A stretch of DNA of 48,065 nucleotides, taken from the NCBI GenBank assembly GCA_046316935.1, contig JBKCXA010000347.1:1-48065 (forward strand), written 5' to 3'. Of the stretch, positions 4,860 through 41,017 are shown in pieces. Source of the DNA: Prosthecobacter sp. (GTDB lineage: Bacteria > Verrucomicrobiota > Verrucomicrobiia > Verrucomicrobiales > Verrucomicrobiaceae). Under the pieces are notes generated by a model. The model saw nothing but the letters and a program-made list of their open reading frames with translations, made no database searches and had not been told where the DNA came from. Every line of letters starts with the position of its first letter. Positions within the stretch are counted from its first letter, which is position 1. Made by a program: the position numbers and the translations under genes.

Positions 4860-6506
4860 TCACGCCCGCCGCGTCTCCTTCGCCAAATCACGAAACTTCA
4901 CCGCCTCGGCACTCAGCTCGGCTTTGTCTCGCATCTGCTGCGTGGAATACGGGAAGCGGGTGCGCCAGTTGGCATCGCTGACGACGCCGGGGACGTTGAA
5001 GCGGTCGATCATGCTGAAGAGATCGGTGATCATGATGGCGGCGTAGCGGCTGGCGCTGGCGAGCAGGCCGCGCATGAGCTGCCATTTGATCGTGTCGTTG
5101 TAGGGCGGGTAATCGCTGGTCGGCGGCATGCTGGCGAATTCGGCGAGCAGGCGCAGCTCGCGACCAGCCTTCATGCGGTCCTCGTGCTCGTGGGCGTGGT
5201 GCATGTTGTGGCGGCAGCCATCCCAGATCGCGGCCATCGGCGGGTGATCGTGCGTGGCGTAGGTGGTGAAGCTGCACTCGTCGTAGGTGAGGCCGGAGAT
5301 GGCCTTGTCATCGGGCGTGACCTCCCACTGCGGCACTTTGAAGCCGGGAATGCCGCGTTCGAGCAGGTGCGGGCGCACATAGTCCGGCACCGCGCCGAGA
5401 TCCTCGCCCACGACTTCCGCCCCCTGAGCGGCGTCCTGGATCATGCGCAGGTATTTGTCGCCCGCGGCGCGATTGGCGGCGCAGTGTTCCGGGGTGTCGT
5501 CCGCGTGCTCGATGTAATGCGGCAGCGGGCCGCCGGTGCGGGCTTTGGCTTCTTCTTCGGTGAGCGGGAGGAATTCGGCATTGCGCTGCGGACGCCACGG
5601 GAAGCCGTAGATGCGGTAAAAGCCGAGCACGTGGTCGATGCGGAAGATGTGGAAGACATCGGTGAGCTTCGCGATGCGCTGACGCCACCAAGCGAAGCCA
5701 TCCTGCTCCATCACATCCCAGCGGTAGAGCGGGATGCCCCAGTTTTGACCCCACTTTTGGACGAAGAGATCGTCTTTGAAGATCTTCTCCGGCGGAGCGC
5801 CGCCGCTCCAGCCGAGGTCGAAGAGGTGCGGATTCGCGAAGACATCGGCGCTGTAATAGTTCACGCCGATGGGGATGTCTCCCATGAGGCGCACGCCGAT
5901 CTTCGTGCCGTATTTGTTCAGCTCCCGCCACTGCGTGAAGGCGATCCACTGCACCCACGCAGGGTAGGTGGCCTCCGGTCCGTCGGGATCGACGCTGCTG
6001 CGAGCATCGGCGGGCCAGTGGTCCCAGAGTTCGTTGCCGTGCTTGTCGATCAGCGTGCGGAAGATGGTGTAATCCTTCAGCCATGCGGCCTCCGCCTTGC
6101 AGAAGGTGGCAAAGGCCTTTGCGCGGGTTTTGTTTTTGCCAAAGCGGGAGAAGGCGAGCTGGAGGAGCTTCGTCTTTACGCGGCGTGCCGCGGGGAAGTT
6201 CACCAGATCGCCGCTGAAGTCCTCGCCCGCCTTCGCGGCGGCTATGTCGGCGGTGGTCAGCTCCGGCAGCGTGTAGAGTGAGATTTCCAACAGCACCGGA
6301 TCGAGCGCCACGGAGCTGATGGCGTTGTAGGGGCTGTTGTCGGGGCCGGTTTCGTTGATGGGCAGCAGTTGGACAAAGCCGATGCCATGCTCCGCCGCCC
6401 AATCCATCAGCTCCCGCAGCGCCCGGGTATCGCCAATGCCGAAGTCATGGTCATGGCGGAGAGCAAAAACAGGCGCGAGGATGCCGGCGGAGCGTTTGGG
6501 ATTCAT
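4860..6506 (-). CDS. malQ: 4-alpha-glucanotransferase (amylomaltase, GH77)
   Basis: Motifs QLLPIN...SPY, GDIPIGV, GQNWGIPLY, FRIDHVLG, VGEDLG, ATHDH, NVPG. Confidence 0.95.
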   Translation of the reverse strand: MNPKRSAGILAPVFALRHDHDFGIGDTRALRELMDWAAEHGIGFVQLLPINETGPDNSPYNAISSVALDPVLLEISLYTLPELTTADIAAAKAGEDFSGDLVNFPAARRVKTKLLQLAFSRFGKNKTRAKAFATFCKAEAAWLKDYTIFRTLIDKHGNELWDHWPADARSSVDPDGPEATYPAWVQWIAFTQWRELNKYGTKIGVRLMGDIPIGVNYYSADVFANPHLFDLGWSGGAPPEKIFKDDLFVQKWGQNWGIPLYRWDVMEQDGFAWWRQRIAKLTDVFHIFRIDHVLGFYRIYGFPWRPQRNAEFLPLTEEEAKARTGGPLPHYIEHADDTPEHCAANRAAGDKYLRMIQDAAQGAEVVGEDLGAVPDYVRPHLLERGIPGFKVPQWEVTPDDKAISGLTYDECSFTTYATHDHPPMAAIWDGCRHNMHHAHEHEDRMKAGRELRLLAEFASMPPTSDYPPYNDTIKWQLMRGLLASASRYAAIMITDLFSMIDRFNVPGVVSDANWRTRFPYSTQQMRDKAELSAEAVKFRDLAKETRRA

Positions 6507-6585: not shown

Positions 6586-6636
6586 GGCGAAGCCGGTCAA
6601 GGAGTCAAGGCTTCGCCGGTCAAGGCTTGGTCAAGG
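6586..6636. repeat. Short repeat cluster: 4x GTCAAGG with GGCGAAGCC/GGCTTCGCC hairpin
   Basis: GTCAAGG at 6596, 6604, 6619 and 6630; inverted 9-mers at 6586-6594 and 6609-6617. Confidence 0.7.
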
Positions 6637-6672
6637 TGAGCACCGACAGGCTTTTGGAACCAACGGGACGAG

Positions 6673-6721
6673 CGGAATCGGCGATTGCACGGACAAAGCT
6701 GGCGGGGCATTTTTCGAGATG
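6673..6721 (+). promoter_or_regulatory. Repeated promoter-like module, copy A (TTGCAC-17nt-CATTTT-5nt-ATG)
   Basis: 41/49 identical to 7885-7933 by manual alignment; ends at the ATG of the 6719 ORF. Confidence 0.75.
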
Positions 6722-7105
6722 CATAAGTTTTTGCCTGCATTCTCGTTCCTGGCCGTCTTGGCGCTTGGTAGTTGTGATCCTGCCCCACGGTGGATCAGCG
6801 GAAACTATGAGGTTTACGCGATTGATGATTCTCAACTCCTCAAGTTTGGAGTCGATATTGGAGGTGGCACTCTAGCTCTCGTCCGTCCCAAGGTAGTCGG
6901 TATTGGAGAGGATGAGCGTTGGATCGTTGTCGAAAGGCATCTCGACGGAGATCAGACGAGGCCTGAGTTCTACTATTTGGAGAAGCTCGACGTCATCGAT
7001 CAACGGAATGGCAAGGACGTGGCGCATGGGCCGTTTCCACAGGCAGAAATGACCCAGAAAAGAGTCGAATTGAAGCTCCCTCCGATAAGTGAGCGGTTTG
7101 ATTGA
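6719..7105 (+). CDS. Hypothetical lipoprotein (DUF3997-like)
   Basis: MHKFLPAFSFLAVLALGSC lipobox-type signal; 128 aa. Family resemblance is tentative. Confidence 0.75.
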   Translation: MHKFLPAFSFLAVLALGSCDPAPRWISGNYEVYAIDDSQLLKFGVDIGGGTLALVRPKVVGIGEDERWIVVERHLDGDQTRPEFYYLEKLDVIDQRNGKDVAHGPFPQAEMTQKRVELKLPPISERFD

Positions 7106-7145
7106 ACAGTCGGCGGTAACTAACCCTACAACCAATCCATCAACT

Positions 7146-7730
7146 ATGATCGACCAGATCAATCAGACGCTTGCGCTTGTCAAAGACACCACAGATGCAA
7201 ACGCCATGTGGCCTCACTTGATCGATATCTGCCGTCGTGTTCATCCAGATCTTCCATGGCATGAAATGCCATCGCCTGAAGTGCAGCTTGATCTGCACGA
7301 GGGATGGCTGTGGCTGCAAAACGATCTCAGCGAACACGATGAAGCGGTTGGCATCTATCTCGGTCTGGACACGTTGAACATGCAAGGTGGCAGAGGCACG
7401 AATATTGAGTTTGGAGCCACATCAGAATGTGATCCGAATTCAGGCAGACCTGATTGGGCCTGGGATGCAGCGTTGCACTATGGCTCACGTCATTTAATCA
7501 AAGGATTGGTTGGGATGCGGGCCTGTTATTCGCGTCCAGCATGGCGAGAATCTCTCGAATTGTGCGACTATGTGTTCTTCCTCGGTTACTCAGGCATGAT
7601 CTTGGCAGAGGTATTCGAGAGTTTCACCCTGCCGCGCACCTTGATGCCAGTGTGGGGGTTCCACGACGGCGATCTGTTCACACTGGGGCGCTATCAGAGC
7701 GGGGAATTCACGAGATTGTGCGCTGGATAG
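7146..7730 (+). CDS. Hypothetical protein (cassette cargo)
   Basis: 194-aa ORF from ATG 7146 after an A/C-rich leader; ends with WGFHDGDLFTLG; no family recognised. Confidence 0.75.
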   Translation: MIDQINQTLALVKDTTDANAMWPHLIDICRRVHPDLPWHEMPSPEVQLDLHEGWLWLQNDLSEHDEAVGIYLGLDTLNMQGGRGTNIEFGATSECDPNSGRPDWAWDAALHYGSRHLIKGLVGMRACYSRPAWRESLELCDYVFFLGYSGMILAEVFESFTLPRTLMPVWGFHDGDLFTLGRYQSGEFTRLCAG

Positions 7731-7768
7731 ATTTGCCATCTTTGCAGAGGAATCCTTGACCTTTGGCT

Positions 7769-7859
7769 TTACTCCCCGCCCGCAAACAGCGTCCTGAGCT
7801 CCTCTAGCACTTCACCCTCCGCACACACCTCGGTGAGGTTGGCGATGGCGGAGGGGATG
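7769..7859 (-). pseudogene. Diverged duplicate of the amgK 3' end (copy 1)
   Basis: 85/91 nt identical to 9176-9266; encodes IPSAIANLTEVCAEGEVLEELRTLFAGGE*. Confidence 0.95.
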
Positions 7860-7884
7860 GTGCCCTTTGAACATCTGGAAGACT

Positions 7885-7933
7885 CGGAATTGGAGATTGC
7901 ACAGACAAAACAGGGGGCGCATTTTTCGATATG
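7885..7933 (+). promoter_or_regulatory. Repeated promoter-like module, copy B
   Basis: CGGAATTGGAGATTGCACAGACAAAACAGGGGGCGCATTTTTCGATATG; homologous to 6673-6721; ends at the ATG of the 7931 ORF. Confidence 0.75.
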
Positions 7934-8281
7934 CTTCCCATCATCTTGCTCGTCCTTGGCTGCGCGTATCTGGCTCTGAAAGCAGTGGGTTGGCGTCGAA
8001 AGCGGAGATTGGCCAAAGATGGCTACGTTTTCGATTTTGTGAGTCCCAGTGTTCTGCGTGGAAATGACAACGAATACGCTTTCGTCTATCGGACCCGTGA
8101 TCACGAGGTTTGGTTCGTGGGCATACAAGATCACACCCCGCTCTCACCTCGATTCGGTGACCATTCAGAGAAGTCTCAAATGTTTTTCGAAGAGAATCGA
8201 AAGCTGATCATGGACAGGCTGCGGCACGAAATTCAATCGAGATGGACCAAGGCTCGTTTTCGTGTCGAGGATGAACCATAG
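7931..8281 (+). CDS. Hypothetical membrane-anchored protein (cassette cargo)
   Basis: N-terminal TM segment MLPIILLVLGCAYLALKAVGW followed by basic RRKRR; 116 aa; start coincides with the shared promoter module. Confidence 0.72.
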   Translation: MLPIILLVLGCAYLALKAVGWRRKRRLAKDGYVFDFVSPSVLRGNDNEYAFVYRTRDHEVWFVGIQDHTPLSPRFGDHSEKSQMFFEENRKLIMDRLRHEIQSRWTKARFRVEDEP

Positions 8282-8329
8282 GCCGTTTTTGAAACAGCAA
8301 TTGCTGTTTCGCTGGGTAGTCAGCGCCAG

Positions 8330-8414
8330 CGTCTTGGAGTGCGCCGGCCCTCCGGCGCTTTCGAGTGGTCCAAGGCACACGGAAAGCTCCAGAGGGCTGG
8401 AGCACTCCAGGACG
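8330..8414. repeat. REP-like inverted repeat pair
   Basis: cgtcttggagtgc-gccggccctccggcgc-tttc ... gaaa-gctccagagggctggagc-actccaggacg; each arm has its own internal hairpin. Confidence 0.8.
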
Positions 8415-8449
8415 GCAAGCGCTCTTGGATGCCATGCAGCGATTCCAAC

Positions 8450-8601
8450 CTACACCCGGCCCGCAAACAGCGTCCTGAGCTCCTCCAGCGCCTCCCCCTC
8501 CGCACACACCTCGGTGAGGTTGGCGATGGCAGCGGGGATGTGCTGCTCGAAGTGGGGTTTGCCGAGGCTGCGTAGGCACCGAGGACCAGCATGAGGCACT
8601 G
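8450..8601 (-). pseudogene. Diverged duplicate of the amgK 3' end (copy 2, with 13-nt deletion)
   Basis: 116/123 nt identical to 9176-9298, then loss of actgaggttggcg, then 29 nt of further homology; encodes ...SLGKPHFEQHIPAAIANLTEVCAEGEALEELRTLFAGRV*. Confidence 0.95.
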
Positions 8602-8651: not shown

Positions 8652-9161
8652 ATGACATGGAAATGCCAGATTTGTGATTCGGTCCACGACGAGATGCCAA
8701 CGTGCTTTGGCTGCGAAGCTCCGTGGAGAGAACTCGTGGAGTCTGAGCAGGAGTTTGAGCAGGAGTTTGAGCAGAGAGTCGAACTCACCCGCGACCAATG
8801 TGTCGTGGATGAAAAACACTTCTTCATTCGAGGACATTTGGAGATTCCCATTCTGGGACGCTCTGAAACTCTGGCGTTGGCAGTTTGGTCATCTCTCAGC
8901 GAAACAAGCTTCTTGCATATGACAGGCCGGTGGAATGACGCCGACAGGGAAAACGATCCACCCTATTTCGGATGGCTCAGCTCACGACTGCCTTTTTATC
9001 CTGACACTGTGAATCTGAAACTTTCGGTGCAAAGCCAGGCACCTGGATGGGTTCCCCTTTTCACCACGGAACCGACAAATCATCCACTCTCGGTCGATCA
9101 GCATCAGGGCATCACCATCGAGCGCTGGCATGAACTCGCCCACAGCTTCATGGGGCATTAG
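8652..9161 (+). CDS. DUF2199 domain protein (cassette cargo)
   Basis: N-terminal WKCQICDSVH, D.CVVD..HFFIRG.LEIP, WSSLSE.SF, YFGWLS..LP.YPDT, HPL..DQ..GIT. Confidence 0.82.
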   Translation: MTWKCQICDSVHDEMPTCFGCEAPWRELVESEQEFEQEFEQRVELTRDQCVVDEKHFFIRGHLEIPILGRSETLALAVWSSLSETSFLHMTGRWNDADRENDPPYFGWLSSRLPFYPDTVNLKLSVQSQAPGWVPLFTTEPTNHPLSVDQHQGITIERWHELAHSFMGH

Positions 9162-9175
9162 TCTTTCGTTCATCC

Positions 9176-10168
9176 CTACACCCCGCCCGCAAACAACGTC
9201 CTGAGCTCCTCCAGCGCTTCACCCTCCGCACACACCTCGGTGAGGTTGGCGATGGCGGCGGGGATGTGCTGCTCGAAATGGGGTTTGCCGAGGTTGCGAC
9301 TGAGGTTGGCGTAGGCACCGAGGGCCTGCATGAGGCGCTGGGCGGCGCAGAGATAAAAGACCTCGCGCAGCTCCGCGAGGTCGAGGCCGCGATGGGTGGC
9401 GTAGAAGCTGAGGAGCTGGTTGCGCTCGGTGCGGGTGAGGGTGACGTAAGGATCGTAGAGCAGGCTGGCGAGGTCGTATTCGGCGAGGCCGAGGCGCAGT
9501 CCCTGGTAATCAACGAACCAGGCGTCTTCGCCGCGAATGAGGACGTTTTGACTTTGGAAATCGCGATGCACGAGGCACCTCGGAAGACGTGCGAGGCGAC
9601 GGCGGAGACGGCGCAGCGTCTCGTGGGCAGCGTCGAATTCTTTGTCGAGAAACTCGCGACCTAGGAAACCGCGGACGTAGTGATCGAGGAAGTAGTTTTG
9701 CTCCCACTCGTAGAGCGCCTCATCGAACTCCGGCTCCAGCTCCGCGTGATCCGTGCGGGTCAGGGCATCCTCGGTGACGCCGTGGATCTTTGCCGCCTCG
9801 CGGAGCGTGGCCTCATAAAGCGGTTGGCGGTCGCTCCAGGGGCGCTCGCGGAAGCTGTGCAAGTCCACGCGGCCGAGATCATCCAGCCAGACGCAGAGAC
9901 GCTGCTCGTCAAAGGCCTGAATGCCGGGCACATGCACGCCGAGCTTCGCGAGGCGTCGGGTGGCGGGGACGAACTTCGGATTGTCACGCCGGGCCATGGT
10001 ATAGACCATCAGGATCATCGGGGCGTGGGCGTCGCTGGCCCAGTTCAGTCGGTAAAAATGCCTGTCCGAGCCGCCTTTGACGATGGGCTCGACCTCGCAC
10101 GCGAAGTCACGGAGCGCCGGAAATTGCTCGCGGGTGAGGATGAGGAGCGCTTCGTGTTCGGGAGGCAT
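9176..10168 (-). CDS. amgK: APH/choline-kinase-like phosphotransferase, AmgK (anomeric MurNAc/GlcNAc kinase)-like
   Basis: GGSDRHFYR, LDDLG, LVHRDFQSQN, VDYQG..G..EYDLASLLYDPY, QRLMQALGAY; directly downstream of a murU-like gene. Confidence 0.8.
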   Translation of the reverse strand: MPPEHEALLILTREQFPALRDFACEVEPIVKGGSDRHFYRLNWASDAHAPMILMVYTMARRDNPKFVPATRRLAKLGVHVPGIQAFDEQRLCVWLDDLGRVDLHSFRERPWSDRQPLYEATLREAAKIHGVTEDALTRTDHAELEPEFDEALYEWEQNYFLDHYVRGFLGREFLDKEFDAAHETLRRLRRRLARLPRCLVHRDFQSQNVLIRGEDAWFVDYQGLRLGLAEYDLASLLYDPYVTLTRTERNQLLSFYATHRGLDLAELREVFYLCAAQRLMQALGAYANLSRNLGKPHFEQHIPAAIANLTEVCAEGEALEELRTLFAGGV

Positions 10169-10175
10169 GCGGTGA

Positions 10176-10210
10176 AATGACGAATGAGGAATGCGGAATG
10201 ACGAATGAGG
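10176..10210. repeat. Five tandem heptamers AATG(A/C)(C/G)G
   Basis: aatgacg-aatgagg-aatgcgg-aatgacg-aatgagg, just upstream of the amgK start. Confidence 0.85.
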
Positions 10211-10222
10211 CGGGAGTGTCAG

Positions 10223-10282
10223 GTTTCAGGTTCCAAGTTTCAAGAGGGGAGTGGTGGGGGCTTGGAACTTGGAACCTGAAAC
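10223..10282. repeat. Hairpin built of GTTYCAR heptamers
   Basis: gtttcaggttccaagtttcaag-16nt-cttggaacttggaacctgaaac; 22-bp stem with one G-U pair. Confidence 0.85.
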
Positions 10283-10292
10283 TGTCCCGGCT

Positions 10293-36278: not shown

Positions 36279-36417
36279 CCGGCTTAAACCCATCAATGTG
36301 CCTTTAATCATACAAAGCCAGATGTTTGCCAATTCAATCATCCGTCACCACCAGAGAACCGAGGTCAGAGGACTTCCGCATGAATTCCTCGATCGGGCCA
36401 AAGTTGGGGATCTCCCG
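36279..36417 (-). pseudogene. Degenerate duplicate of the 3' end (plus ~25 nt downstream) of the 39839-41017 glycosyltransferase
   Basis: Reads EIPNFGPIEEFMRKSSDLGSLVVTDD*IGKHLALYD* versus KIPNAGPVEVFMRKSSDLGALALMDDCIRKHVALYD*; about 93/114 nt identical to 39839-39952; internal TGA. Confidence 0.9.
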
Positions 36418-39662: not shown

Positions 39663-39838
39663 GGGATGGGTGAGGTGGAAAGAATGAGATGGGAGCCACG
39701 GCAGAGGTGCTAAGCGGTTCGAGGCCCGGCAGTGCCGTGGTGCGGCACAGCCCAAGGCGCTGTAACTCGGGCGGAAGCGCTGGGAAACTCCTTTGGTGGC
39801 GGAATTGGTTCGACCGGTTTGCGCTCATCAATGGGCTT

Positions 39839-41017
39839 TTAATCATACAGAGCCACATGTTTGCGAATGCAATCATCCATCAGCGCCAGAGCACCGAGGT
39901 CGGATGACTTTCGCATGAAAACCTCGACCGGGCCTGCATTCGGGATCTTCCCCGCATACCAGCTTTTGCCATACTGCTCGATCTTTTGGCCGGCCTCTTC
40001 AAAACATCTGGAAGCGTCCGCCTCTTCAAAGTGCTCTTTGAGAGTCTCCCCGAGTTTGGCGAGAACCATCAAAAAGTCGCTTCTTTGAAGCGCGTCATCG
40101 TGCGGACTGGCTGAGTGCCCGAGGCTTGCTGCCATGGCTTCCCTTCCTATCCAGAACATCGGCAGAACCACATGATCCCCCCAGACGACCGAGCAAAACG
40201 CCTGTCCCATCTCAATCAGATCCGGACGTCTTATGAACACCTCCTTCGGGATGGCGGGAAGAACCCGGCAGAAACAGTCTTTCGCAGCAGCGGTGCGCTG
40301 TAACGCATAGAAGTTGTTCATATACAGAGTGGATTGCTGGGCCAGCCTTTGCGCGGCGTTTTCCCCCTTCACCCGGTAGCTTTTGGCAAAAAGATGTCCC
40401 GCGCTCCAGCATGGCATCCGGTTTTTGATCACAAAACCCGCATGCCAGCCCTGTGCGCTGGCGCACCCCGGGTTGCTCCGCATGTAAGCCAGGGCACCGA
40501 GGACGCCTTTCACTGAGATGAAATCATCATCGGCGGAGAAGAGCACATAGGGCGTGTCCACCAGTGACATGGCGTGACTGGCCTTTTCGGCAAAAGTGAG
40601 GGTTGGAAGATGAAGATAGTTCACCAGCCCGGGGATTCCCTTTGCATACGGAACACTCGTGGAGTCGAGCACCAGGATTTTTATGTTCCACCTACCGTAG
40701 TAACTGAGCGATCTCTCCAATCTCGAATGCCTGTTGTGCGTGGGTATGACGAGCGTGATCTCGGCCAGTTGATCGCTGGCCTCGTCTTTCTTGAGCCTGG
40801 CCACCGCCCGCTTCCGCCACCGACGCCGGATGGATTGCTGGAGCCGAGCATGATGGGCGGAACCCGGAAAACTGGCACCTCCCGCCTTCTCCTCCCATTC
40901 CAGCTTGAGATGATTGAAAGCCTGGATCATCCGAAGGCGCTGCTTCCTCACATAGGAAAACAATCCCAAAATGAGCGCCAGGATGAGGAGGCTGTTGATG
41001 AGAAGGAGGAGTTGCAT
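39839..41017 (-). CDS. Glycosyltransferase (GT2-like, TIGR00180-type)
   Basis: N-terminal TM; ITLVIPTHNR..RLERSLSYY, ILVLDST, TPYVLFSADDDF. Confidence 0.78.
   Translation of the reverse strand: MQLLLLINSLLILALILGLFSYVRKQRLRMIQAFNHLKLEWEEKAGGASFPGSAHHARLQQSIRRRWRKRAVARLKKDEASDQLAEITLVIPTHNRHSRLERSLSYYGRWNIKILVLDSTSVPYAKGIPGLVNYLHLPTLTFAEKASHAMSLVDTPYVLFSADDDFISVKGVLGALAYMRSNPGCASAQGWHAGFVIKNRMPCWSAGHLFAKSYRVKGENAAQRLAQQSTLYMNNFYALQRTAAAKDCFCRVLPAIPKEVFIRRPDLIEMGQAFCSVVWGDHVVLPMFWIGREAMAASLGHSASPHDDALQRSDFLMVLAKLGETLKEHFEEADASRCFEEAGQKIEQYGKSWYAGKIPNAGPVEVFMRKSSDLGALALMDDCIRKHVALYD

Follow-up and report, generated by a model that had tools for sequence, protein, structure and literature searches.

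Near-identical promoter DNA in front of unrelated genes has been described as promoter reuse. In the putative mobile promoters of Nijveen et al. (2012, PMC3575422), coding sequences that are not related to each other share 80% identity or more over 50 nt of their upstream DNA; their families are mostly pairs, and promoter capture has been proposed as the outcome. Three further systems bear on the locus described here. In Vibrio cholerae, homology-facilitated illegitimate recombination has been put forward as the source of arrays of T6SS orphan immunity genes (Kirchberger et al. 2017, PMC5361080). Insertion with long target duplication leaves direct repeats of more than 30 bp and of variable length, with no other mobile element involved (PMC2853133). 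In T4-type phages, the PeSL cassettes (Arbiol et al. 2010, PMC2839356) number about 50 per genome and include both a stem-loop and an SD sequence.

We analyzed a stretch of 48,065 nt from a Prosthecobacter genome (the window) and found one block of DNA placed in front of each of two small genes, here called A and C, that show no detectable homology. Positions 6673-6721 and 7885-7933 are identical at 41 of 49 sites without gaps, and with the next base included the two module copies (6673..6722 and 7885..7934, both on the + strand) agree at 42 of 50. Copy 1, the predicted leaderless promoter of gene A, has the -35 box TTGCAC at 6685-6690, the -10 box CATTTT at 6708-6713, and the ATG at 6719. Copy 2, the predicted captured promoter of gene C, has the same boxes at 7897-7902 and 7920-7925 and the ATG at 7931; in each, 17 nt separate the boxes and 5 nt separate the -10 box from the ATG. 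Identity falls to 7/30 right after the ATG and one further base and is 11/25 in the 25 nt upstream of the copies, which lie in the same orientation, 1212 nt apart, in one array. The first-pass annotation had reported this repeat, its spacings, and the end of homology within one base of the start codon, and our comparison agrees with it on all three.

Like the putative mobile promoters (PMC3575422), the block passes the 80% identity level across 50 nt (42/50), and no paralogy is detectable between the downstream genes A and C. Unlike them, it spans -46 to +4, where the published search window ran from -150 to -50 (PMC3575422), and it holds both boxes and the ATG and is confined to one local array, which places it outside that operational class. 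Judged by sequence statistics, the block appears to work like a reused promoter. It resembles the PeSL cassettes in being a repeated promoter block that runs up to the start codons of orphan genes within a variable region; unlike them, it is present in two copies, and neither an SD sequence nor a terminator-like site was found in it (PMC2839356).

An ungapped scan of all 983 contigs gave no third copy of the 49-mer, the next best match being 31/49, and the best 49-mer direct repeat in each of 20 resampled slots reached 27-32/49. The block was absent from 104 other genomes of the genus (30-mer search, at most 3 mismatches), and the module was absent from the 1.5-kb flanks of the first 24 loci of the genus carrying amgK, the gene that bounds the array, and of the further loci examined. 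With two copies in the genome and none in the 104 genus genomes, a generic genome-wide repeat was rejected. A structured RNA was dropped as well, as no Rfam match came near the gathering score. The same module copies with the same genes were found on two metagenome contigs, and each ATG was crossed unbroken by contigs of two runs (X4 and X5), so an assembly artefact is unlikely. The runs containing the stretch were mostly from freshwater, and the single run recorded as RNA held 0.06 of the stretch's words. Among the matches listed, no other joint at the ATG appeared in the contigs of 4 of the 20 listed runs, a material that drops rare variants.

The 50-base block is likely, from its sequence, a leaderless housekeeping-type promoter of gene A. 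The counts behind this reading come from a crude self-made ORF caller (3256 ORFs). Among 2876 first ATGs, TTG[AC] peaks at -34 to -39 (53-68 per position, with 22 at -33), and the layout TTG[AC]NN, 16-18 nt, YANNNT, 3-8 nt, ATG is present at 62 of the 2876 starts and at 22 of 20370 internal ATGs. At the starts of this genome, -10 boxes of the C type show an 11-fold enrichment, and the shortest common distance from box to ATG is 5 nt. SD-like words are not enriched before the genome's starts, and the 5 nt before the module ATG contain no SD sequence. By these counts the block seems to fit the genome's own leaderless start-signal layout, and a -35 box at -34 with a 5-nt gap would place +1 at about the A of the ATG. 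As the tie between box and ATG is common in this genome, it is no sign of a swap system. An E. coli-type promoter scan found no promoter anywhere in the slot that holds the two copies, and neither copy contains a terminator-like site. Some Verrucomicrobia are listed as SD-scarce (PMC10783764); among the papers listed by our literature search, none dealt with leaderless promoters in Verrucomicrobia or with start-codon-precise swaps.

Gene A (6719..7105, + strand; 128 aa, 51% GC) encodes a predicted lipoprotein whose Cys19 is invariant across 14 homologues. It has no Pfam match, and PF13162 was found in 0 of the 14 family members; an atlas neighbour cluster (score 0.94) carries PF13162 on 26% of its members, and a DUF3997-like identity is a lead only. 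The A-family is present in 13 of 145 genomes of the taxonomic family, the window's own included, and a close homologue (71%) is found in a Verrucomicrobiaceae bacterium record (L085). Fold searches with gene A gave no clear match (best E 0.53, best Z 4.0, model pLDDT 60). A-family lipoprotein genes also lie at unrelated loci (L088-L099), and in genomes G109, G004, and G137 they are followed by tails that we take to be attC-like. For the G004 tail there are 10 matching places, spread over 8 contigs of the window's genome, which suggests an integron cassette pool.

Gene C (7931..8281, + strand; 116 aa, 50% GC) has a predicted N-terminal membrane anchor and belongs to no family. No clear match came from its fold searches (best Z 6.5, rmsd 3.4, 78 aligned) and no usable one from an atlas search, and a C profile run over 400 genomes of the order turned up no additional member. 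Among 144 other genomes of the taxonomic family, the C-family was found in one (G082). Genes A and C are not detectably homologous, as had been claimed: there is no BLASTP match between the proteins (E 1.1), the profile-profile probability is about 1% with either 4 or 14 A sequences, and the fold searches gave no match common to both.

The two copies stand in a slot between a 4-alpha-glucanotransferase gene on the left (4860..6506, - strand; Pfam Glyco_hydro_77), which we take to be malQ and which is 93-98% identical in close relatives, and an APH-family kinase gene on the right (9176..10168, - strand; Pfam APH), presumably amgK from its place after a nucleotidyl transferase and the likely recombination anchor. 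Four cassettes of 50-53% GC, against 64% in the flanks, fill the slot: module and A; B; module, C, and a REP-like repeat; and D. Gene B (7146..7730, + strand; 194 aa, no family, 53% GC) adjoins amgK with its 3' part in G105, and gene D (8652..9161, + strand; DUF2199, Pfam PF09965, 52% GC) adjoins amgK in G111 and G100. Pieces of the amgK 3' end follow the first three genes. After A there is a 10-nt remnant (7124..7133, - strand), which continues into a longer decayed amgK copy in G055; after B there is copy 1 (7770..7859, - strand; 90 nt, 94% to amgK); and after C there is copy 2 (8449..8601, - strand; 153 nt, 86% to amgK with a 13-nt gap). Gene D is followed by amgK itself. The REP-like palindromic repeat (8323..8430) occurs at 19 places in the genome and also beside amgK in G055, and by blastn a short intergenic repeat just left of cassette A (6596..6640) is dispersed in the own genome and many relatives of the genus. 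A 12-nt tandem repeat in the window's gene D is missing from one run's contig.

In five relatives with both flanks on one contig, the slot from malQ to amgK measures 360-7028 nt and holds different cargo: A' and E in G055, F and E in G096, the end of B in G105, a SUKH gene in G108, and D with others in G111. The flanks lie apart in G024, G051, G052, and G053. Genes B, D, A, and E adjoin amgK or a piece of it in G105, G111, G100, G055, and G096; copies of the amgK end occur also in G055 and G096, and copies of the malQ start in G082, G100, and G111. In G105, gene A and half of gene B have been lost, and the joint, in the middle of B, shows 3 nt of microhomology. On the slot's left, inserts at G082:C231, G100:C58, and G111:C3 are edged by 119-227 nt copied from the malQ start and its promoter; in G082 this copy opens a 96-aa chimeric ORF whose first 14 residues are those of MalQ. 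Gene D aligns in two pieces in G100 and G111 (L072 and L073) and looks broken there.

This slot is like the V. cholerae arrays in having small unrelated genes stacked at a conserved anchor with gene ends left between them, cargo common to several strains, and no integrase shown; unlike them, its anchor is the 3' end of a convergent housekeeping gene and it contains no effector gene, and an immunity role of A-D would be conjectural (PMC5361080). The amgK copies of 90 and 153 nt are also like long-target-duplication inserts, being direct repeats with no other mobile element. Unlike in those inserts, the cargo has no restriction-modification Pfam match, the copies are diverged and stacked, and no empty site was found (PMC2853133).

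Across the genome, a survey of 2166 genes gave 12 end-only matches and 9 control matches. Six gene-end duplications were inspected, five of which look like an insert followed by a short gene-end copy and one like a tandem paralogue. Gene-end duplication is a recurring pattern, without clear enrichment. Contigs C25, C180, C716, C892, and C958 of G000 carry inserts of 0.6-1.6 kb, each with 41-80 nt of the preceding gene's 3' end repeated behind it, and the cargo at C25 and C716 looks toxin-antitoxin-like by eye. The window has a gene-end duplication of 138 nt at 80% in a sugar-modification cluster (36279-36416 and 39814-39951); the duplicated end belongs to the ORF at 39839-41017 and recurs 3.5 kb downstream.

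The distribution of the block points to gene A as its owner. Of 14 A-family loci, only the window and G055 have it, the others reaching at most 20/49. In G055 it stands in the same place before gene A and matches the two copies at 24/46 and 25/46, against a mean of 14 for a background of 66 starts that likewise have their -35 box at -34, of which 1/66 and 0/66 reach 24; the G055 copy has no YANNNT box at the 16-18 nt spacing. The C homologue in G082 lies at another locus, directly after another ORF's stop, and is not preceded by the block; a match of 18/46 between module copy 1 and the DNA before this homologue was discarded, as it equals the top of unrelated pairs. The preceding ORF end (L082 1-141) lies at the contig edge and has no Pfam match, and its stop abuts the ATG, an arrangement typical of toxin-immunity pairs.

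The N-terminus of gene C is 3 residues shorter than those of P0005, P0006, P0007, and P0010, which leads us to infer a junction near codon 4-5 between C-family DNA and the promoter and ATG of A. This fusion probably happened a single time, through an illegitimate joint that fell on the ATG or no more than a few bases from it. P0005 agrees with gene C at 6 of 20 residues before about codon 20 and at 94 of 96 after it; as the C alleles break there, joints in gene C are not confined to the ATG. When P0005, P0006, and P0010 are compared with window 7931-7990, the body of the protein is near-identical and its 20-residue membrane anchor is of two different kinds; variants inside the body that occur with both kinds indicate recombination among the alleles.

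We consider it probable that, as a whole, the promoter of A was captured by C through illegitimate recombination in an amgK-anchored slot. The observation is explained by known kinds of process, promoter capture and an array built by anchored illegitimate recombination, with a single event. What carries this reading is the repeat and its uniqueness, the stacked cassettes with their amgK pieces, the variable cargo in relatives, and the shorter N-terminus of C. Incoming DNA of a relative would pair on amgK and form an illegitimate joint at its free end; if this joint fell within the resident amgK, a 3'-end piece and a stacked cassette would be left, and one further left would delete resident DNA. 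In a related strain, C-family DNA would first have replaced A behind the promoter, either by amgK-anchored insertion-deletion or by deletion inside a stacked array. The resulting cassette (25 nt, module, C, REP, and amgK end) would then have come into this lineage by way of its amgK anchor, the joint of its free end, 90 nt within the resident gene, leaving copy 1, and cassette D would have arrived likewise, leaving copy 2.

Such a history would require no dedicated enzyme. The precision at the start codon can come from survival, because in a leaderless arrangement only joints near the ATG would be expressed and the ATG offers microhomology. Homology-facilitated illegitimate recombination leaves microhomology at the illegitimate joint, and the G105 deletion has it; for the single event at C, microhomology at the joint would be a supposition. 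Arrays of this kind would depend on DNA uptake and RecA-dependent anchoring, and the genome has a ComEC match. The proposed slot mechanism follows the published model (PMC5361080), and its outcome corresponds to promoter reuse (PMC3575422).

The differences between the module copies open another explanation. Read in the ATG frame, seven of the eight fall on the third base of a codon (P 0.0026 per frame, post hoc) and 13 of 15 residues are kept, a bias that a promoter does not predict and that may be chance or a trace of coding origin. The block could thus be the relic of a protein-coding gene, such as the end of an upstream toxin gene, derived from two diverged alleles, with the boxes incidental or secondary. 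It would suit this origin that the C homologue in G082 directly follows the end of another ORF and that the cargo in G108 is a SUKH-family gene, as in toxin-immunity loci. However, the frame is open with no stop before the ATG, which we count against a relic, and the bias is gone in the next 8 codons and in comparison with G055. A source gene was found in 0 of 144 family genomes, an exact-pattern source neither in genome_contigs nor in viral_contigs, and none among longer proteins, the last being a weak test. We regard a coding relic as unlikely. A prepilin-type leader in the in-frame peptide was dropped by eye, as such leaders have Glu at +5 and this one does not. Doubtful too is the idea that in this leaderless-rich lineage the start codon is itself a preferred recombination joint and the slot keeps a promoter socket where many unrelated secreted or immunity-like ORFs attach at the ATG, A and C being the two alleles seen to date; it is equally doubtful that the third-position pattern marks constraint on the block serving as that socket.

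A tandem duplication in this lineage, of a unit made of module, A, and amgK end with the second ORF later replaced by C, would account for two copies in one array, 1212 nt apart and in the same orientation, and amgK copy 1 is marginally closest to the own amgK (77/82, against 76/82 to G105). These pieces are too alike for donors to be assigned from them. The 45 nt beyond the amgK ends, however, match a different relative for each cassette, copy 1 at 44/45 to G105 and copy 2 at 34/45 to G055, and the 45 nt beyond the window's amgK itself match G111 and G100 at 43/45. Moreover, the modules differ by 16% where amgK copy 1 differs by 6%, and the second unit has no trace of A. This makes duplication within the lineage very unlikely.

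The first-pass annotation had gone further and proposed a defined exchange mechanism, a dedicated process that would replace ORFs exactly at the start codon while the leaderless promoter before them stays fixed. The end of homology one base after the ATG, the hypervariable slot, and the attC-like tails of A-family genes elsewhere, one of which has the 10 matches in this genome, would agree with it. Of that proposal, the leaderless promoter stands, as it fits the genome's start signals, but the platform is not fixed, the G055 copy at 24/46 still heading A; likewise one ORF change at or within a few bases of the ATG is retained, but two copies with two ORFs do not amount to repeated swapping. 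The defined mechanism finds no support in the other cargo: upstream DNA is unrelated for the five other slot cargo-gene families compared, that of gene D matching the modules at 7/46 and 9/46, and among 12 upstream 46-mers, taken from the slot cargo and from the G082 homologue, no pair rises above 18/46 except A-C and pairs of the same gene. Nor does the contig (C347) hold any of the genome's four PF00589 tyrosine recombinase matches. An integron cassette array was rejected, as the contig has no integrase; three attC-like tails gave no blastn match in the slot. Start-codon precision also fails as a rule, since the C alleles break at about codon 20 and the G105 deletion ends in the middle of B.

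Genome-wide, 31323 candidate starts gave 229 pairs with at least 35/46 identity upstream, 31 of which diverge downstream. Judged by eye, none of these 31 is a second convincing case of promoter sharing; the other pairs trace to ATGs inside or antisense to paralogues, or to dispersed short-unit repeats. Repeats of the latter kind abut real starts, including that of amgK (window 10169-10290), and produce high upstream identity between unrelated genes. A dedicated swap process is, on this evidence, highly improbable. Equally improbable is a very remote homology of A and C that dates from an old duplication, with promoters homogenised by gene conversion. A 28-30 column profile match (P about 0.05) and models that are both beta meanders with C-terminal helices speak for it; the profile probability of about 1%, the lipoprotein-type Cys of A and the long N-terminal helix of C, and A-family invariant residues that are not seen in C speak against it.

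Read as capture of A's promoter by C, the locus would be a natural case of promoter capture in a leaderless genome, and the relatives show a variable slot growing via anchored illegitimate joints. The case suggests a rule by which, where transcripts are leaderless, the surviving joints of gene replacement would cluster at the ATG. If many ORFs shared this joint, and only then, it would hint at a new route of gene exchange.
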